A stretch of 57,417 bases of DNA from Candidatus Kaiserbacteria bacterium. GTDB taxonomy: Bacteria; Patescibacteriota; Minisyncoccia; Phycocordibacterales; JABAAK01. The DNA lies in assembly GCA_026713605.1 (NCBI GenBank), contig JAPOOC010000007.1:1-57417 (forward strand), given 5' to 3'. The notes beneath the pieces were generated by a model. That model worked only from the letters and a program-made list of their open reading frames with translations. It searched no databases and was not told the DNA's origin. Below, in pieces: positions 4,993 to 55,895 of this stretch. The stretch's first letter is position 1. Every line of letters begins with the position of its first letter. A program made the position numbers and the translations under genes.

Positions 4993-7740
4993 GTGGAGCC
5001 AGTATTGCGTACAGGTAAAGATATTTCTTCAAAAGCCGGACATTTTTCCGAACACTCAGAGAGTGAGGTGTTAGGGACATTGCGCACCTCCCTAAAAGGG
5101 TTGACACAGCGAGAGGCAGACATGCGGCTGGAAAAATACGGAGAAAATACCGTGCAGCGCAAAAAGCACTTTATATGGCTACGACGAGTCGTGGCACAGG
5201 TAAAAAACCCTATTGTATTAATTTTGTTACTGTCGAGCATCGTACTGTACAGCATTGACTATGCGGCAGATGCATACATCATCCTCGCAGTATTAATTAT
5301 CAATATGACAATCGCCTTGTTGCAAGAAGGCAAGGTGTCACGAGCGTTTGATTTACTACGAAAAATAGATAAGCAGTACGCTCTAGTACTGCGTGATGGA
5401 AATCAGATAGAAGTTGCGGCAAACAACCTGGTGCCAGGAGACATTGTTTTTTTCAAAGCAGGTTCAAAGATCTCTGCTGACATACGGATACTACGCGAAA
5501 ATAATCTACAGGTTAATGAATCAATACTAACCGGTGAGTGGGCGCCAGTAAACAAAAAGGTAATCACGCTTGCCAATAAAAAAATGCTCGCAGAGCAGGT
5601 GAATATGGCGTGGAAAGGAACAACAGTGGTCACCGGTAATGGTAGCGGAGTTGTGGTGAACACTGGCGAGCGAACTGCAGTTGGTGGCATTGCAAAGGAG
5701 TTGTACGAGGAAGAGACAAAAACACCGCTCCAGCAACAGATTGAAAAATTAGCGCGATGGATCATGGGAATAGTATTTTTAGCGGTGGTAAGTATTATCA
5801 TTATCGGGACACTGCAAGGAATAGAAATCACCGAATTGATGATCACCGCCATTGCAGTAGCAATCGCCGGAATCCCATCCGGGCTACCAGCAGCAATTAC
5901 CGTGGTGTTGGTGTTAGGAATGCAATCGGTATTAAAAAATAACGGATTAGTACGCAATATACTCGCCGCTGAAACACTCGGCGGAACATCGTGGATACTC
6001 ATGGACAAAACCGGCACACTCACAAACGGCAACATGGTGTTATCCGAGATACTCTATGTTGACCAGCGGGAGGAGGTTGCCGATGAAACAATTTCATCAT
6101 TTGGACGAGGCATCGTACACAACGCATACTTGGCAACGGATGGTAAGCGGCTCAACCGTGAGCAAAGTGATGGTGACACCAATTCAGATGAAACCGTGTT
6201 TAGCGGAACAGCTATCGAACAATCACTCGTGCGAGCGTGTGAGGCAGTATGTGCCGAGACACCACATCGGGACAAGCGGATCGCATATGTGCCGTTCAAA
6301 GCCGCAAAAAAGTATTCTTGTGCGATCACGCAAGAGCAGAGTGGGGAACAGTACTACTATATGATCGGCGCACCAGAGATAGTGCTGGAGCAGTCAAGGC
6401 GGGTGCATAAGCAGGGGAAAGTGGTGTCACTAACTGATGCAGATAGGAGAAAATTACAAACGATGCTTGCAGAAGAGGCGGGAAAGGGGAGGCGGGTTAT
6501 TGCTATTGGCTCGGCAAAAGTAGAGAGTAACACAAAAAACATCCCAGACGACACCGCACGCCATCAACAGATCGCCGAACAAGGTGACCACAGCGTTGTA
6601 TTTTTAGCACTACTTTCTCTGGAGGATACAGTCCGTGCCGATGTGCCGGACGCAATACAGCAAATGCGCGACTCACATGTAACACTTACCATGGTAACGG
6701 GTGACAATCAACATACCGCGTTACACATCGCAGAAAAAGCCGGTATTATCGGAGCAGATGATTCAAAGGGGGTGCTGGTTGGAAAAGAGGTGGAACATAT
6801 GTCCGATGAGGAGCTATTTGCAAAAGCGCAGGTGGTACGAGTGTTCGCGCGAATGGCGCCAGACCAAAAATCACGACTTCTGCGTGTGTTGCTAGACCGA
6901 AAAGAGGTGGTTGCTATGACTGGAGACGGAGTCAATGACGCGCCGTCACTATACCGAGCATCAATCGGTATTGCCGTTGCATCCGGAACTGATGTGGCGA
7001 AAGAAGCATCTGACCTTATTTTGCTCAAAAACTCCTTCTCAACCATCACTGCCTCCATCTTTGAAGGAAAAAAAATTATAAGAAACCTAAAAAAGATTCT
7101 CATCTACCTACTGTCAACATCACTCAGCGAAGCAATATTGGTAGCGGGCGGTCTATTAGCGACTGCAATGCTACCAATACATCCGATACAGATACTGTGG
7201 GCAAACATCATAGAGGAAGCATTTATGGCATTCGCATTCGCATTTGAGAAAGGGAGTTCTGATATCGCAAAGTACGATCCAAGGAGCGATCGAACAAGAG
7301 ACATTATCAGTAAGAATGTTAAAAAAACCATCAGCATTCTCGCCATTATGACAGGACTATTTCTACTCGGCGTGTATGCATGGCTAACATCTTTCACTGA
7401 GCTCACGCACACACAAATACAAACAGTCATGTTCCTCACCGTTTCCATTGATTCTGTATTTATGGCAATATCGCTCAAGCGACTGGACAGGAGTATTTTT
7501 GCCACAAACTTGTTTAATAATATATGGCTTGTCGGCGCCGTCAGTATCAGCGCAGTACTGATGGTACTCGTCTTCACCGTGCCGCCACTCACCGCTGCAC
7601 TGAAAGTGGTGCCAGTACCGATATGGATTTTTTGGCTGGTGCCGATCAGCGCACTATACCACATTATCGTGGTAGAAGTTGTGAAAAAAATATTTTTTAT
7701 GAAAAACTATAGAACCCCAGGAGAGCGATTAATGCCATAG
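4993..7740 (+). CDS. P-type cation-transporting ATPase (P2-like)
   Basis: LTGE, DKTGTLT, MVTGD and TGDGVNDAP motifs. The ORF is open from 4906; GTG 4993 is preferred because TATACT lies 7 nt upstream. Confidence 0.92.
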   Translation: MEPVLRTGKDISSKAGHFSEHSESEVLGTLRTSLKGLTQREADMRLEKYGENTVQRKKHFIWLRRVVAQVKNPIVLILLLSSIVLYSIDYAADAYIILAVLIINMTIALLQEGKVSRAFDLLRKIDKQYALVLRDGNQIEVAANNLVPGDIVFFKAGSKISADIRILRENNLQVNESILTGEWAPVNKKVITLANKKMLAEQVNMAWKGTTVVTGNGSGVVVNTGERTAVGGIAKELYEEETKTPLQQQIEKLARWIMGIVFLAVVSIIIIGTLQGIEITELMITAIAVAIAGIPSGLPAAITVVLVLGMQSVLKNNGLVRNILAAETLGGTSWILMDKTGTLTNGNMVLSEILYVDQREEVADETISSFGRGIVHNAYLATDGKRLNREQSDGDTNSDETVFSGTAIEQSLVRACEAVCAETPHRDKRIAYVPFKAAKKYSCAITQEQSGEQYYYMIGAPEIVLEQSRRVHKQGKVVSLTDADRRKLQTMLAEEAGKGRRVIAIGSAKVESNTKNIPDDTARHQQIAEQGDHSVVFLALLSLEDTVRADVPDAIQQMRDSHVTLTMVTGDNQHTALHIAEKAGIIGADDSKGVLVGKEVEHMSDEELFAKAQVVRVFARMAPDQKSRLLRVLLDRKEVVAMTGDGVNDAPSLYRASIGIAVASGTDVAKEASDLILLKNSFSTITASIFEGKKIIRNLKKILIYLLSTSLSEAILVAGGLLATAMLPIHPIQILWANIIEEAFMAFAFAFEKGSSDIAKYDPRSDRTRDIISKNVKKTISILAIMTGLFLLGVYAWLTSFTELTHTQIQTVMFLTVSIDSVFMAISLKRLDRSIFATNLFNNIWLVGAVSISAVLMVLVFTVPPLTAALKVVPVPIWIFWLVPISALYHIIVVEVVKKIFFMKNYRTPGERLMP

Positions 7741-11179: not shown

Positions 11180-11205
11180 AGTACTATATAAGTATATACT
11201 ATCGT

Positions 11206-47859: not shown

Positions 47860-49752
47860 ATGAAAGGTATCTACAGCCACCAATGGCTACAAACATTTTT
47901 TGAAAAATCATTGCCCGCACCGAAGGCGGTGAGTGAGGGCTTACTGAAGCACGCGTTTGAGGTGGAAGAGGTGCGGTCAGTACCGGGTGGTGATACTATA
48001 TATGAACTAGATATTCTGCCGAACCGATCAGCGGACTGTCTTGCACACTACGGCATTGCAAAAGAGGTCGCAGCAATATTTTCACTACCAATGAAACAGC
48101 AATATTTTCAAGAGCAGTTTTCATTCGGCGAAACGGCAGAATATATACAAACAGACAAATGCAACCGATACACCATATTGAAAGTTACAGACATAGCAAT
48201 TTCTGAGACGCCGGAAGAGATGCAGAAACATCTCGCAGCAGTTGGGCAGCAGGGTGTCCACCCGATTGTTGATCTGGCAAATTATATTCTGTTTGATATT
48301 GGGCAACCGATCCACGCATTTGATGCACAGAAAGTGTCGGGACAGTTCGGAGTTCGGCAGGCAAAAAAAGACGAACAGCTGACGCTACTTGGCGAAGAAG
48401 AGGTGGTATTACAAGAAGATGATGTAGTGATTGTTGACGCGGTTAATGACCGCGCCATTGCACTGGCAGGAATAAAGGGGGGTGAGGAAACAAAGGTGGA
48501 TGAAGACACAAAAGAAATATACATAGAAATAGCTTCATTTAATGATGTGAGTGTGCGACGAACGGCGCGACGAACAGGACACACATCTGACGCCGCACTG
48601 AGATTCTCACAAGGATTTCCATCGGAACTGATCGACTATACTGCGCATCAGGTTGCGGCACTATTCAAACAATATGGCTCAATCACTGACTCATTTAACT
48701 GCCAGCGAATTCCTTTGCCACAACGACACACAGTGAAAGTTTCTGTTGTCGGAGTAAACGCACTGCTCGGCACCGCATACACGAAAAAAGATATTACCAG
48801 TGTGTTAAACCGGCTTGGATTTGTGTATGAAGATAATGCGCAGGAACAATATACAGTTACGGCCCCAATTGAGCGACCGGATGTGCGGGATGAAAATGAC
48901 TTGATTGAAGAAGTGGGGCGGTTGCTTGGGTATGATTCGGTACCAAGCAGTATCCCCACAAACAAAAAATGGTATTCCTTGGCGACACGGATATACAACC
49001 ACTTCCTGCCAGTAGGCAATGAGATGTTCATGAAGCGGCTCGCAGTGCTGCAGGCATTACGAAGCATTGGATTCTCTGAGGTAATGACCTCATCATTTTG
49101 CGCAAAAGACAAAGTGTGCGTTGCCTACCCAGTCGCTAAAGACAAAGGGTGCCTGCGGTCATCGCTGCGCCCGGGGATAGAAGAGACACTGAAGCAAAAT
49201 GCGTACAACGGTGAATTATTGGGATTAGGTATTGTACAGGTTGCAGAAATTGGAAGTGTGTTTACCAAAGAGGGTGAAGAAATACACCTTGCACTTGGGG
49301 TGCGAGAAACCTTGGGAAGAAAAAAAGCAGATACAGCTCTCATTGAGAAAAAAGTCAAACAGACAGTAGGTATAACAGGCGGCTTTGAAGGCGGAATATG
49401 GGAGGTGCCACTGGACGAGGTGCAGGTGCACAAAACAGGTGACGGTGCGCCGTCTATCAGTAGGGTACGCTATGTATCGCCATCAAGATATCCATGTATG
49501 CTACGAGACATAGCGATATTCGTACCAGAAGGTGCTACCACAAAAAAAGCAGAAACACTGTTGCGAGAAAACGGCGGAGAATATCTGCGGCAGGTGAATC
49601 TGTTTGACGCATTTACAAAGACCGGCAAACAATCATACGCGTTCCGTTTGGTGTTTCAGTCGGATACCGAAACCCTTGACGATGCAGTAGTGAGCAGGCA
49701 GATGGACACCTTATACAAAGCATTAAAGCGACACAATTATGAAGTGCGATAA
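47860..49752 (+). CDS. pheT: Phenylalanine-tRNA ligase beta subunit (reduced)
   Basis: LDILPNRSADCL, IGQPIHAFD, RPDVRDENDLIEEVGR, RDIAI, SYAFRLVFQ. Confidence 0.95.
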   Translation: MKGIYSHQWLQTFFEKSLPAPKAVSEGLLKHAFEVEEVRSVPGGDTIYELDILPNRSADCLAHYGIAKEVAAIFSLPMKQQYFQEQFSFGETAEYIQTDKCNRYTILKVTDIAISETPEEMQKHLAAVGQQGVHPIVDLANYILFDIGQPIHAFDAQKVSGQFGVRQAKKDEQLTLLGEEEVVLQEDDVVIVDAVNDRAIALAGIKGGEETKVDEDTKEIYIEIASFNDVSVRRTARRTGHTSDAALRFSQGFPSELIDYTAHQVAALFKQYGSITDSFNCQRIPLPQRHTVKVSVVGVNALLGTAYTKKDITSVLNRLGFVYEDNAQEQYTVTAPIERPDVRDENDLIEEVGRLLGYDSVPSSIPTNKKWYSLATRIYNHFLPVGNEMFMKRLAVLQALRSIGFSEVMTSSFCAKDKVCVAYPVAKDKGCLRSSLRPGIEETLKQNAYNGELLGLGIVQVAEIGSVFTKEGEEIHLALGVRETLGRKKADTALIEKKVKQTVGITGGFEGGIWEVPLDEVQVHKTGDGAPSISRVRYVSPSRYPCMLRDIAIFVPEGATTKKAETLLRENGGEYLRQVNLFDAFTKTGKQSYAFRLVFQSDTETLDDAVVSRQMDTLYKALKRHNYEVR

Positions 49753-49816
49753 TAAACCCCTTAGTTGTGGTATACTACCATAAGACCCATAAGAGTTAGA
49801 AGTAGGAGGATGCTTG

Positions 49817-50830
49817 ATGAATATCAAAACCGATTCTTTGAATCAATTGGTTGATGGTGGCTGTGTTGAAAAAAATGAATTTTTCATAGAAAGCAATTTT
49901 GGCACCACACATTTTATCGGTGTCGGAGAGGCACCAGAGGAGGTGCTATCGTACACCAAGGATCTTTTACAAAAATTTAGACCTGAAAAATGGTGCGGGC
50001 AGACAACGCAAATCATCCGCACGGAGGTAAAGTTATGCCCAGAGGGTACACGCCTCATAGAGATTGAGCAGCGACCATGCGGGCTTGGATTTTTTTTGGA
50101 AGCAGGTAAGCAAACTGGATACACCCCTGACCTTAAGATTGATCTGTCCTCTGTGACGGTACTGTACTCTCCAGGGCGGGTCAAAGACGAAGTGTTCTTT
50201 TCCGACGAACACCTGTTCACCGATCACATATTTCCGTGGGATAAGCCGAGGGATATTGAAACTGGCTTTCTCGTAATCCGTGCAAGAGAAGATGAACCAA
50301 TGCCTGATTGGCTAAGGACAGAGTTTGTTAGCCCGGTCAGAAAAAATCCAGCAATGCTTCTGCTAAGAAGAAATGCTGACAAGGCGCGTGTCTATGAAGA
50401 CCTTGCCTTGCCATATAGGGTATTTCCGGAACATCTGGGTGGCTCAAATCCACCATCCCATTCGCATGTGAAAGATGCCTTGTGCCGTGCATTGCAGGTA
50501 CTCAAAACCTTGCGGTGTGTGGTGAAGCCACGCCGCGGATCGAGAGCTCGAGAGGTTGCCACGCTCAACCTTATTGAAATATTCAAGCTGAGCGGGCGGT
50601 CGCAAATCGTAAAGAATATACGAAAAAACCCAAGAGAGTATGTAATCCAACCGTACTACAGGGGGGTGGAAGAGGGTGAGGGTGTTTGCCACCTATACCG
50701 TCTTTTCTATGTAAAAACAGAAAACGGATGGCAGTATCTTGGCGGTTTTCTCGCATTAGATGACCTGCAGGTAGCAAAGATGATCGTCCACGGGTCGGAG
50801 CGAGTAAAAAATATTCTCATTGTTCCTTAG
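49817..50830 (+). CDS. Putative circularly permuted ATP-grasp-like ligase
   Basis: IRTEV...RLIEIEQRPCGLG in the N-terminal third; VVKPRRGSRAREV and YVIQPY in the C-terminal third. AGGAGG 7 nt before ATG 49817. Confidence 0.55.
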   Translation: MNIKTDSLNQLVDGGCVEKNEFFIESNFGTTHFIGVGEAPEEVLSYTKDLLQKFRPEKWCGQTTQIIRTEVKLCPEGTRLIEIEQRPCGLGFFLEAGKQTGYTPDLKIDLSSVTVLYSPGRVKDEVFFSDEHLFTDHIFPWDKPRDIETGFLVIRAREDEPMPDWLRTEFVSPVRKNPAMLLLRRNADKARVYEDLALPYRVFPEHLGGSNPPSHSHVKDALCRALQVLKTLRCVVKPRRGSRAREVATLNLIEIFKLSGRSQIVKNIRKNPREYVIQPYYRGVEEGEGVCHLYRLFYVKTENGWQYLGGFLALDDLQVAKMIVHGSERVKNILIVP

Positions 50831-50874
50831 AAAAAACATCAGGGCTCTCGCATGCGAGGGCTCTGACATTTTTT
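50831..50874 (+). terminator. Probable terminator hairpin
   Basis: TCAGGGCTCTCG-CATG-CGAGGGCTCTGA (with G-U pairs) followed by a T run. Confidence 0.65.
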
Positions 50875-50899
50875 ATGCAACACCAGTATACTGTACACA

Positions 50900-51787
50900 A
50901 TGACAGTCACGCAGGAAGAACTGCTAAGCATGTTTTCAAAGCACCGGGGCAGGATTCCCTATGTGTTTTCATTTGGTCGGGGGAATGGTCCGCACAGTAT
51001 TATTGTTGGCGCACTGCATGGCAATGAAGATGCAGGATTACAAGCGATACATGCGTTGCACAAAGAAAGAGACAGCATAATAGGTACGGTAACTGCTGTG
51101 TTAGGAAATCCGGAAGCATACAAAAAAGATGTGCGGTATAGTGATGAGAATCTCAATAGAATTTTTAGAAATCCAATACAAGGGAGTACCTACGAATCTA
51201 AGCGGGCAAGAGAGTTGTCTGCACTATTCACGCACATCGCAAAACAGAACAACAGGATAACGGTCATTGACATACACACCACTTCACAGGGAGAAGAGCC
51301 ACTATTCATGTGCCATAGAGACGACAGGCAAACCCTACAGTTCCTAAAGAAAACCCCGTTGTTTGAAAGTATTGTGTTGATTACCGAAGCACTCCCATAC
51401 TCACTATGCGCTTTGACACGCAAGTGCAACTTCTCCTACATCGGCGCCGAATGTGGAAAGCACAAAACAGAACAGGCAAATAATAATGCGCGTATGTTAC
51501 TTGAAGAGGTATTAGTACGGCTTAAAATAAAGGCGGGAAGGAGCATGCATAGCCGTGCCACAGAAAAAAAGGTTGTCAAGATTGAGCAGATGATAGTGCC
51601 AACGCCAGGACTACAGTTTGTGGTGCAAGAGGTAAAAACAGTAACATCAGTTAAAAAGGGTGAGGTGTGGGCGGTTGATGATGCCGGAAAGCGAATTGCC
51701 GAAAAAGATATGGCACTGTTTTGTGTGCCAAAAAAAGTTCGCCACACCGATACAAACGCCGGATTTATCTGTGCATATGGTACTTAG
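50900..51787 (+). CDS. Succinylglutamate desuccinylase/aspartoacylase-like M14 Zn hydrolase
   Basis: GALHGNE, NLNRIF, IDIHT, GAECG. Confidence 0.88.
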   Translation: MTVTQEELLSMFSKHRGRIPYVFSFGRGNGPHSIIVGALHGNEDAGLQAIHALHKERDSIIGTVTAVLGNPEAYKKDVRYSDENLNRIFRNPIQGSTYESKRARELSALFTHIAKQNNRITVIDIHTTSQGEEPLFMCHRDDRQTLQFLKKTPLFESIVLITEALPYSLCALTRKCNFSYIGAECGKHKTEQANNNARMLLEEVLVRLKIKAGRSMHSRATEKKVVKIEQMIVPTPGLQFVVQEVKTVTSVKKGEVWAVDDAGKRIAEKDMALFCVPKKVRHTDTNAGFICAYGT

Positions 51788-53685: not shown

Positions 53686-54393
53686 ATGAAGCAGGCACAA
53701 AACACAAATAGCAGGAGAATCGTAGTGGTAGGTGTGGCAGTAGCGATGGTGCTGGGGGTGCTACTCTATGTAGAACATCCGATGGTACGAATAGTGAAGC
53801 ATATCGTGGCAGGTATCGGTGCCATTGACTCGCAACACACCGTGGTCGGCATGACCGATGTGCGATCCGTTGACCACATTCGAGGAAACGCTGATGCGGA
53901 TGTAGTACTTATTGAATACTCAGACCTTGGCTGTATCATGTGCGCCGCGATGCAGAAAAACTTTGAAAAAATTGTACAAGAGGAAGAGGTGATGCTGGTA
54001 TCACGACATCTGTACCCACACCAAAAAGGTTCTGCCTTTGAGGCGGCAGTTGCTGCTGAATGTGTGGCAAAACACACGGGGGAGGAGGCATTCTTTTCAT
54101 TCATCCAATATGTGTATGAAAACCAAGGAAGTGTCAGTGACACAAAAGTATTGGCGAATAAAGCGGCTGAGTTAGGGACAGATGCGCGACAGTTTCAGGA
54201 ATGTATTGCGACAGACACGAAAGTGCGAGATCGGGTGAAGCGAGACAGTGATGAAGGGTGGCGACTGGGTTCCCGTGGGACACCGTATATCGTGATAGTA
54301 TATAAAGACCGACCAATTGGTATTTCATACGCGAACGAATACAGAAAATTTTTGGAGCGGGTGAAAATGTTAGTGGCAAAAGCAAAATCATAA
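53686..54393 (+). CDS. DsbA-family thiol-disulfide oxidoreductase
   Basis: LIEYSDLGCIMC, RHLYP, GSRGTPY; N-terminal TM helix. Confidence 0.88.
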   Translation: MKQAQNTNSRRIVVVGVAVAMVLGVLLYVEHPMVRIVKHIVAGIGAIDSQHTVVGMTDVRSVDHIRGNADADVVLIEYSDLGCIMCAAMQKNFEKIVQEEEVMLVSRHLYPHQKGSAFEAAVAAECVAKHTGEEAFFSFIQYVYENQGSVSDTKVLANKAAELGTDARQFQECIATDTKVRDRVKRDSDEGWRLGSRGTPYIVIVYKDRPIGISYANEYRKFLERVKMLVAKAKS

Positions 54394-54453
54394 TAAAAAA
54401 TATGGTATACTGCAACCATAACCAATTTAATAAAATTACTTACAAATAACACT

Positions 54454-55158
54454 ATGAATAAAGAAGAAAATAATACCAACAACATGATCACCGCTTTTGC
54501 TGTTTTGATAGCAATCGGAGCAGTTTTCTTTGCTGGGGTGATGTACGCAAGAGGTGGCAATGTGGCAGTAGCACCACCAACAGACGGCGGAGTAGTGCCA
54601 CCTCCTGGACCGCCACCAGTTACACCAGACCTTGATGTGTTAATGGTGCAGAGTAATGATGCAGTCCGTGGCAGTGGAGATATATTGCTAATAGAGTACT
54701 CAGATTATGAGTGCAGTTTCTGCAAGCGATTTCATCCAACGGCGCAGGCATTAGTGGACAGTGGCGAAGTTGCGTGGGTGTATCGGCACTTGCCACTACC
54801 ATTTCATGTAACAGCAAAGGATGGCGCTGCCGTCGGAGAGTGTGTCAAAGAGCACAAGGGGAACGAGGCATTCTGGACATACACAGATAAAGTGTTTGCC
54901 GCAAGCGCATTAGATCTTGAGACCTATAAGTCGTTGGCAAGAGATGGCGGACTTTCTGACGCACAGATAGATACTTGCCTTGCGGCAGGTAGTGATGCGC
55001 AGAAAGCTGTTGAGCAGCACATGAACGACGCGCAAAAAATGGGAGTCAATGGAACGCCGGGGTCATTCTTGGTCAACACAAAGACCAAGGCGGTAGAGTC
55101 CATACCGGGAGCATTGCCACTAGAGCAAGTACGGAGCATGCTTGAAAGCGTACAATGA
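54454..55158 (+). CDS. DsbA-family thiol-disulfide oxidoreductase
   Basis: LIEYSDYECSFCKRFH, YRHLPL, GVNGTPG. Confidence 0.92.
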   Translation: MNKEENNTNNMITAFAVLIAIGAVFFAGVMYARGGNVAVAPPTDGGVVPPPGPPPVTPDLDVLMVQSNDAVRGSGDILLIEYSDYECSFCKRFHPTAQALVDSGEVAWVYRHLPLPFHVTAKDGAAVGECVKEHKGNEAFWTYTDKVFAASALDLETYKSLARDGGLSDAQIDTCLAAGSDAQKAVEQHMNDAQKMGVNGTPGSFLVNTKTKAVESIPGALPLEQVRSMLESVQ

Positions 55159-55895
55159 TAGAACAGTTGTCCATAGTAAGTTTTGCCGTAACCATATTTG
55201 CAGGAAGTATCACCGTATTTCTGCCGTGTACCTATCCAATGGTGTTGGGGTACATAGCACTCATTATCGGTGACGAGGACAGCAATAACATCCCGTACAC
55301 ACTCACGACAACAAGCTGGTTTTTTACCGGTTTTGCGGTGGCATACGCCATCTTTGGTGGCGTTGCCGGCTTATTTGGACAGTTTAGTCAAACAGCGGTG
55401 TGGTTTAATCAGGCAAAACCAACGCTGGTGATTATCGGGGCGATTTTCTTTATCATTGTTGGCTTAGTGCTACTCCGTGCAGTGCCATTGCCAGAAAAAT
55501 TGCTTGGCAATAAATCATTTCCAATACCGAAAATGCTACCAGTGCACACATGGTGGGGCGTCACCCTCATCGGCGTGATATTTGCAGCAGGGTGGTCGCC
55601 TTGTATTGGTCCGGTGCTTGGCGGCGTGCTGACTTTAGCAGCAAGCTCCGGGTCAGTGCTGACAGGAATGTTATTACTATGCGCATTTGCAGTCGGTATT
55701 ATGATACCACTCACTATCTTAGCAGTGCTATACACAAAAGCGGCAGAGCGATTGCAAGAGATACCAAAATTTCTCCCGATCATGCGAAGTATCGGAGGAC
55801 TCCTTTTCATCGCACTCGGCATCTTTTTCCTTTTCGGAGACCTGTCATTCTTTAGCAAAGCAGGACCGCCAGAATTCTTGCAAAAATTCTTATAG
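55155..55895 (+). CDS. ccdA: CcdA/DsbD-type transmembrane electron transporter
   Basis: FLPCTYPMV and GWSPCIGPVLG. Confidence 0.9.
   Translation: MIEQLSIVSFAVTIFAGSITVFLPCTYPMVLGYIALIIGDEDSNNIPYTLTTTSWFFTGFAVAYAIFGGVAGLFGQFSQTAVWFNQAKPTLVIIGAIFFIIVGLVLLRAVPLPEKLLGNKSFPIPKMLPVHTWWGVTLIGVIFAAGWSPCIGPVLGGVLTLAASSGSVLTGMLLLCAFAVGIMIPLTILAVLYTKAAERLQEIPKFLPIMRSIGGLLFIALGIFFLFGDLSFFSKAGPPEFLQKFL

Follow-up and report, generated by a model that had tools for sequence, protein, structure and literature searches.

We examined a 57,417-nucleotide stretch (hereafter the window; contig JAPOOC010000007.1) of the 594 kb genome of a Candidatus Kaiserbacteria bacterium, a member of the Patescibacteria. Within it, two adjacent genes, here called ORF A and ORF B, lie on the same strand downstream of pheS and pheT, the pheT stop being at 49752, so that 49753 is the first base past this gene. 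By analogy with characterised enzymes, ORF A and ORF B probably constitute a split ligase/amidase module acting on a small amide, in which one protein makes the bond and the other breaks it, as the two halves of the E. coli glutathionylspermidine synthetase/amidase (GspSA, also called Gss) do within a single chain.

ORF A occupies positions 49817..50830 of the forward strand and encodes a circularly permuted ATP-grasp-like ligase of 337 amino acids (aa) when read from the ATG, from which residues are numbered here. The 338-aa orphan of the initial annotation, which had been made from the DNA letters alone, corresponds to the TTG start at 49814; both options share the stop ending at 50830. The motifs quoted in that annotation can be read directly from the sequence: a putative Mg motif comprising R68-T-E70 and E82-I-E84-Q-R-P-C-G89-L-G91, and, further on, the ATP motifs V235-V-K237-P238-R-R-G241-S-R-A and the hinge Y275-V-I-Q278-P-Y280. 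The order along the chain (Mg hairpin at 68-91, then 237-241, then 278) is the permuted arrangement. All of these motifs are conserved in an alignment of 53 homologues whose columns are on average 26% identical. Within the Mg hairpin, R68 is retained in 52 sequences, E82 and E84 in 51 each and G89 in all 53, with R86, P87 and G91 also in the signature. The ATP half keeps K237 in 51, P238 in 52, Q278 in 49 and G310 in 53, and its signature extends to G241, R295, G309, H325 and G326, the last residues falling in a C-terminal part (R295, G309-G310, H325-G326). The middle domain adds a conserved set of its own (S118, R121, D130, R155, E160 and K189). Overall, the catalytic signature is present in 49-53 of the 53 sequences, and K237-P238-x-x-G241-S/T-K/R together with Q278 in 47-52. 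Because they are near-invariant at such a low mean identity, the motifs are, as judged from the alignment, not a product of chance. It had also been remarked that the canonical Asp and Asn of the metal site are replaced by two Glu. This is true of ORF A, and the two replacements differ in depth: the Mg-ligand Asn is Glu (position 84) in 51 of the 53 family members, whereas position 70 is Asp in 41 and Glu in 11, the Asp-to-Glu change being restricted to the subclade of the window. Glu is itself capable of metal binding.

Neither ORF A nor its family is recognised by sequence comparison. ORF A has no significant match in Pfam, NCBIfam or the PDB (phmmer), nor in PADLOC or PHROGs, and a first family profile (A1) has none in the PDB. 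The GSP_synth family (PF03738) does not match ORF A or 24 homologues even at E<=10, and CP_ATPgrasp_1/2 (PF04174/PF14403) match none of 24 members at the same threshold. Evidence at the level of the fold comes from two AlphaFold2 (AF2) models, one built from a 9-sequence alignment (pLDDT 81.8, pTM 0.84) and the other from the 53-sequence family alignment (pLDDT 93.4, pTM 0.92). In Foldseek searches of the PDB, the top four matches of the first model were 3n6x, YjfC (7uk6, rank 2) and the glutathionylspermidine synthetase GspS (2ioa, 3o98), and for the second model 3n6x and entries of GspS filled the top seven places (E 4.1e-6 to 7.4e-4, prob >=0.98). Entry 3n6x was the best structural match for both models (E 1.2e-5 and 4.1e-6, prob 1.00, TMq 0.44-0.45). 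Taken over both searches, these permuted enzymes were found at prob 0.98-1.00 and E 4e-6 to 7e-4, a result in favour of the fold proposed in the initial annotation. The classic ATP-grasps (PurT, DcsG, PurK, LysX, Ddl and biotin carboxylases) ranked under the permuted ones, with weaker E-values, in both searches, and essentially all PDB matches of meaningful probability were ATP-grasp enzymes. A 24-sequence profile (A2) matches DcsG (E=1.6e-4), with profile positions 156-280, which hold the K-P, Gly-loop and Q-P-Y motifs, aligned on DcsG residues 61-186, so that the C-terminal half of ORF A is the counterpart of the N-terminal and central regions of a non-permuted enzyme. NCBIfam matches below threshold across the family point the same way, to DcsG (6 members), MptN (5), glutathione synthetase (2), and also to CPS-like and RimK-related ligases. 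The models thus support a circularly permuted ATP-grasp at the level of the fold. Membership of the sequence families PF03738, PF04174 and PF14403, which the initial annotation had named for comparison, is not supported. By analogy with the superfamily, ORF A would be an active carboxylate-amine ligase.

The family founded by ORF A, one of minimal circularly permuted ATP-grasp ligases, is uncatalogued: no Pfam or NCBIfam model exists for it. A word-indexed search of 5.8 billion proteins returned 8 homologues (57-29% identity), all of them unnamed and free of Pfam domains, and an exhaustive hidden Markov model search of 1.84 billion cluster representatives with the alignment of these homologues returned 19 proteins at E<0.001, none with a Pfam match. 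The family is compact (about 300-340 aa), and the source records say only 'hypothetical protein'. The more distant matches form a second subfamily (clade II), and a pattern scan based on it revealed 38 loci among the species genomes of GTDB; scans with back-translated patterns of the close subfamily found no relatives in genome contigs or metagenome contigs. The labels of the 38 loci name Patescibacteria lineages or give no classification, with the exception of six that read 'uncultured Gammaproteobacteria' (L032, L037, L044, L045, L046 and L050, from genomes G459-G464). These six third-party (TPA) assemblies are of 0.5-1.3 Mb and lack Omp85/BamA, so that their labels are doubtful and probably wrong. 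The family seems to be confined to Patescibacteria, where it is rare: it was found in 4 of 400 other genomes sampled evenly across the phylum, or about 1% of Patescibacteria genomes, and was absent from all 60 close relatives, five congeneric species among them. Full-text literature searches for circularly permuted ATP-grasps, and for ATP-grasps with Patescibacteria, yielded no description of it.

More than one ligase gene is present at two of the loci. On metagenome contig ctg393383 (L072:2352-6080), three tandem paralogues of ORF A stand ahead of one AstE/AspA gene. In the first (P0013), the Mg ligands and K237 are gone (N70, G82, S84, S237), the second is divergent (D82, D84, L121, G189), and the full signature is present only in the copy adjoining the hydrolase. 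The degenerate paralogues may be dead or regulatory subunits, or the array may carry out a multi-step ligation. At L032:5902-9076 the order is ligase, M20, ligase, with two genes of the family around a single M20 gene.

ORF B (50900..51787, forward strand, 295 aa) belongs to the AstE/AspA family of zinc amidohydrolases, as had been proposed, and its catalytic residues are intact. It matches PF24827 (AstE_AspA_cat) with E=1.9e-18 and 67.2 bits against a cut-off of 25, and a profile of seven orthologues matches aspartoacylase (E=1.3e-13) and, over its full length, succinylglutamate desuccinylase AstE (E=2.7e-11). H40 and E43 (in the motif H40-G-N-E43), R79 (RY..NLNR), N86/R87 and H126 (DIH) are invariant in the 7 orthologues and align to AspA H21/E24, R63, N70/R71 and H116. 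The catalytic Glu, E184 (GAECG), is likewise invariant and is presumably the equivalent of AspA E178. ORF B scores under the NCBIfam equivalog cut-offs, with 64.3 against 180 bits for aspartoacylase and 41.7 against 305.65 for AstE (42-47 against 170-306 over the AstE models). From its sequence, then, ORF B is an active-looking member of a distinct AstE/AspA subfamily, and not AstE or AspA proper.

The association of the two genes extends far beyond the window. An AstE/AspA gene lies directly 3' of ORF A, on the same strand, in the window and in L006, L008/L009 and L010, all in a pheST/comF context; it also does so in L003/L004 and L073, in an mraZ-rsmH-ftsL-ftsI context (ORF A 43% and 33% identical to that of the window), and in L005 and L072, in a dsbA-dsbA-dsbD/infC context (29% and 26%). 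At least three unrelated genomic contexts, which otherwise have nothing in common, thus hold the pair. The conservation of this neighbourhood, which the initial annotation had left to be checked, therefore holds for ligases as distant as 26-29% identity, and more distant members are followed by other amidohydrolases. The homologue P0014 of L075 (16% identity) has an FGase (PF05013) as its next gene. Among the 38 clade II loci, the partner is a DapE-like Peptidase_M20 in 24, a class-I glutamine amidotransferase (GATase) of the C26 type in 5 and a class-II GATase_4 in 7; a hydrolase is nearby in 36 and directly downstream in 34. In the family as a whole, 45 of about 51 loci have an amidohydrolase adjoining the ligase, and in 43 it is the next gene downstream, in the same orientation. 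A maximum-likelihood tree of the ligases shows strong clustering by type of partner (10 changes; shuffled labels gave 26.6, with 0 of 200 shuffles as low): the AstE/FGase clade stands apart from that of M20, C26 and GATase_4, and the GATase_4 loci fall into a single nested clade. Enzymes that are not homologous have thus come to occupy the hydrolase slot on a few occasions. About 10 clade II pairs are only 1-38 nt apart, some of them 1-3 nt, and are thus operonic. No third gene is conserved beside the pair. Only 10 of 61 related genomes have PF24827 at all, in 1-2 copies each, which makes chance adjacency negligible. The pairing is real and more than adjacency, and the gene order, from ligase to hydrolase, is conserved.

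Two kinds of neighbour recur around pairs of clade I, the clade of the window. In L003:1833-5270 and L073:1491-4871 the pair lies directly after mraZ-rsmH-ftsL-ftsI, in the slot usually taken by mur genes of the dcw cluster. Genes for DsbA-DsbA-DsbD(CcdA) or DsbB are found near the pair in the window (53686-55895), in L005 (3585-5887), in L072 (1-2195) and in L003 (11565-12182), that is, in three otherwise differing contexts. A general linkage to dsb genes was considered and dropped, since such genes are near only 2 of the 38 clade II loci; in clade I their proximity could reflect residual synteny or a weak thiol-redox link.

The two genes of the window appear to be separated transcriptionally. 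Between them lies an intrinsic-terminator-like hairpin with its T run (50839..50876, forward strand, CATTTTTTAT), whose 12-bp GC-rich stem spans 50839-50866, followed by a -10 box, TATACT (50887..50892, forward strand), 7 nt ahead of the ATG of ORF B and without a Shine-Dalgarno sequence, which makes a predicted promoter of the leaderless type. A GC-rich hairpin is found in the spacer of 8 of 8 loci of the AstE type, with sequences dissimilar between loci, and a T run follows it in 7 of them (L010 has none); TATACT, 6-8 nt and ATG, again without Shine-Dalgarno, precede ORF B in L006, L008 and L073 too. About 15 pairs of clade II also have hairpins. The layout of TATACT followed by ATG precedes many genes of the window, and can thus be taken as the usual promoter style of the genome: TATACT stands 3-12 nt ahead of an ATG, without Shine-Dalgarno, at 11195, 21140 (reverse strand), 23464, 24413, 34628, 39308, 42923, 47136, 50887, 53672 and 55906, several of these sites being at gene starts, which suggests widespread leaderless or near-leaderless transcripts in the host. 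ORF A, in contrast, has a 35-nt leader with a Shine-Dalgarno sequence, AGGAGG (49802..49807, forward strand), 9 nt ahead of the ATG and 6 nt ahead of the TTG. An extended -10-like box, TGGTATACT (49768..49776, forward strand), lies upstream of it, just past the pheT stop, as a consensus match only. The separate promoters suggest that the making and breaking activities could be expressed independently or at different levels.

The pair is an accessory module, rare, patchy and repeatedly lost. In G003, the closest genome of the same genus (PheT 72% identical), pheT abuts comF, with neither ORF A nor ORF B. In G002, also of this genus, a 31-aa in-frame relic of the C-terminus of ORF B (L028, reverse strand 133-225; 61% identity) persists between pheT and comF, and in L007 a relic of 38 aa (7071-7184) lies next to comF, with ORF A kept (the relics are 61-66% identical). 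A recent insertion of the pair was rejected on account of these relics, which point to loss. ORF A stands alone in L001, L002 and L074, and ORF B is frameshifted in L073. From the relics and the loci with ORF A only, it follows that the pair is ancestral to this lineage and was lost repeatedly; ORF B is lost more readily than ORF A. The copies of ORF A without a hydrolase in L001, L002 and L007 have changes at the near-invariant H325/G326, and that of L002 also at R86, Q278 and R295, which may reflect drift under relaxed constraint, the numbers being small. PheT is 769-797 aa long in L007 (3613-5934) and in G001, G002, G004, G005 and G009, against 630 aa in the window, with an insert between the B3_4 and B5 domains; the long PheT of L007 matches NLPC_P60 (PF00877), a cell-wall hydrolase domain, most likely inside the insert.

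How might such a module work? By analogy with the superfamily, ORF A would bind Mg-ATP between the half that carries K237, the Gly-loop and Q278 and the hairpin that carries R68, E70, E82 and E84. It would phosphorylate the carboxylate of its substrate to an acyl phosphate, and attack by an amine would then yield the amide. ORF B would hydrolyse an amide, most simply the product of the ligase itself or a derivative of it, and in the course of evolution at least five families would have taken this role (AstE/AspA, FGase, M20, class-I GATase/C26 and class-II GATase_4). In each of the five, characterised enzymes cleave amides of the gamma-glutamyl, succinyl, formyl or acetyl type, and many release an acidic amino acid. 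Given these activities, and given that ORF B keeps the residues aligned to the carboxylate-binding residues of AspA, we tentatively propose, on analogy and with less than even confidence, that the bond is an amide to or from Glu or Asp (N-acyl-Glu/Asp or gamma-Glu-X) in a small molecule or short peptide. The host genome lacks genes for spermidine synthase and GSP_synth, which makes glutathionylspermidine unlikely as the product. It does carry a canonical Ddl and three Mur ligases, and ORF A is thus not a core peptidoglycan enzyme; a role as a replacement for Ddl was rejected on these grounds, and because genomes of the same genus lack ORF A.

Several observations weigh against a make/break module of this kind. 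The Foldseek TM-scores are modest (0.35-0.45, with rmsd of 9-11 A), which is expected for multi-domain hinge enzymes of differing size and is still a caveat. The hhalign comparison of the family with E. coli Gss, YgiC and YjfC is not significant (prob 2.4%); the one stretch that it aligns, which speaks in favour of the permuted fold, sets R68-x-E70...E82 on YjfC R101-x-D103...E116 with an identical 14-residue spacing. With Asn changed to Glu family-wide, and Asp to Glu in the subclade, the chemistry could differ. The class of substrate is inferred solely from the activities of characterised members of the partner families. The strong terminator and the separate promoter stand between the genes at the AstE-type loci, and an intact ORF A has no adjacent hydrolase in L001, L002, L007, L074, L044 and L053, so that the hydrolase is not obligatory. 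These last two points are also what could be said for ORF A and ORF B being functionally unrelated neighbours, each with its own promoter, of which one was lost and the other kept in several relatives. The initial annotation had itself warned that the hairpin and the -10 box might reduce the link to adjacency. Both elements are indeed there, but mere adjacency is very improbable, given that unrelated contexts hold the pair even where ligase identity is as low as 26%, that 45 of the approximately 51 loci have an amidohydrolase, and that PF24827 is so scarce in related genomes.

If the association is functional, the hydrolase could act before the ligase rather than after it, releasing the nucleophile (ammonia from glutamine in the case of the GATases, an amino acid from an N-acyl precursor in that of AstE, FGase and M20) that the ATP-grasp then couples to a carboxylate. 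CarA/CarB carbamoyl-phosphate synthetase, which is an ATP-grasp with a class-I GATase, and MurT/GatD are precedents for such an arrangement, and 12 clade II loci do pair the ligase with proteins of the class-I or class-II glutamine-amidotransferase type. The class-I partner, which counts against hydrolysis of the product, is nearer to the glutaminase subunits of GMP synthase (GuaA type, E=5e-15) than to gamma-glutamyl peptidases (3.6e-6), and some pairs are 1-3 nt apart, which is compatible with a complex. Yet five families would supply very different nucleophiles, while the active-site signature of the ligase is constant. Non-homologous replacement in one slot usually keeps the reaction, which favours cleavage of one shared amide; pairs of the AstE type are transcriptionally insulated; and the characterised stand-alone GATase_4 enzymes, as EgtC, are gamma-glutamyl amidohydrolases. 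We consider this order of events unlikely. A still less probable role is that of a protein-tagging system, in which ORF A, like RimK and TTL/TTLL, would extend a protein at its C-terminus or on a side chain with amino acids such as Glu, and the M14-related ORF B would trim them, in the manner of the cytosolic carboxypeptidases (CCP). TTLL and CCP are indeed an ATP-grasp writer and an M14-clan eraser, and weak NCBIfam matches link the family to the RimK-related and MptN glutamate ligases. In its favour, too, YgiC and YjfC ligate spermidine to peptides (Pederick et al. 2023, as cited in PMC11762307). Against tagging, no conserved small ORF or candidate substrate protein is found beside the pair at the loci examined, ORF A is compact and has no extra recognition domain in its AF2 model, and the partners (AstE/AspA, FGase, DapE-like M20 and GATases) are typically amidohydrolases of small molecules.

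We therefore return to a ligase and a hydrolase that probably make and break one amide. The tiny genomes of the candidate phyla radiation (CPR)/Patescibacteria have little biosynthesis, and a ligase and hydrolase kept there should meet a specific need, such as salvage, detoxification, buffering of a pool or modification of an envelope precursor. That five amidohydrolase families occupy one gene slot is unusually clear genomic evidence for a functional ligase/hydrolase pair, and it narrows the search for the substrate to amides plausibly cleavable by all five. One might speculate, with little confidence, about a Patescibacteria-specific reversible conjugation, by which a host-derived or envelope metabolite or peptide would be capped with an acidic amino acid (a glutamylation-type reaction) and the cap removed by the recruited amidohydrolase; in the same speculative vein, the enzyme responsible would be a minimal permuted ATP-grasp whose Mg site is unusual in being all carboxylate, with Glu where other ATP-grasps have Asn. 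If true, episymbiotic bacteria would have a new write/erase switch for small molecules or peptides, with a possible tie to envelope or redox biology, given that dcw and dsb genes recur nearby.

Among known systems, several have parts of this design. ORF B has in common with AspA and AstE the PF24827 domain, the zinc ligands and the residues aligned to AspA R63, N70 and R71, and differs from them in scoring far under their equivalog cut-offs. In PuuA/PuuD, EgtA/EgtC and TTLL/CCP, an ATP-dependent amide ligase is matched by a hydrolase (C26, class-II GATase or M14-clan) that removes the group. The hydrolase families overlap with the partners of the ORF A family, but the ligases are glutamine-synthetase-like, of the GCS2 type or non-permuted ATP-grasps, unlike ORF A; nor are intermediate-modifying enzymes conserved beside the pair here. 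The best structural match, 3n6x (Mfla_0391, deposited as a 'putative glutathionylspermidine synthase'), is only 13-15% identical to ORF A. We take it to be of the COG2308/CP_ATPgrasp class, a family typically linked to alpha-E and transglutaminase-like genes, none of which were seen in the ORF A neighbourhoods. YgiC and YjfC (7uk6) are stand-alone permuted ATP-grasp ligases of 386-387 aa, similar in size to ORF A; they belong to PF03738, as ORF A does not, and DUF1190 proteins rather than amidohydrolases are encoded beside them. Annotated for years as GspS homologues, they are peptide-spermidine ligases whose physiological substrates are not known (Pederick et al. 2023, cited in PMC11762307 and PMC12568646). 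GspSA (2ioa, 2io9, 3o98; PF03738) has no significant sequence similarity to ORF A. Its synthetase domain has about 420 aa, against 337, its Mg site has Asn in place of Glu, and its amidase is a fused CHAP cysteine amidase, whereas here it is a separate gene for a zinc AstE/AspA enzyme (M20, GATase or FGase in relatives). Its permuted ATP-grasp is nevertheless among the top Foldseek matches of ORF A, with the putative R-x-D/E...E-x-N/E Mg hairpin ahead of the ATP-binding Lys at the same 14-residue spacing, and, like the pair described here, it couples an amide synthetase to an amidase able to undo the bond.

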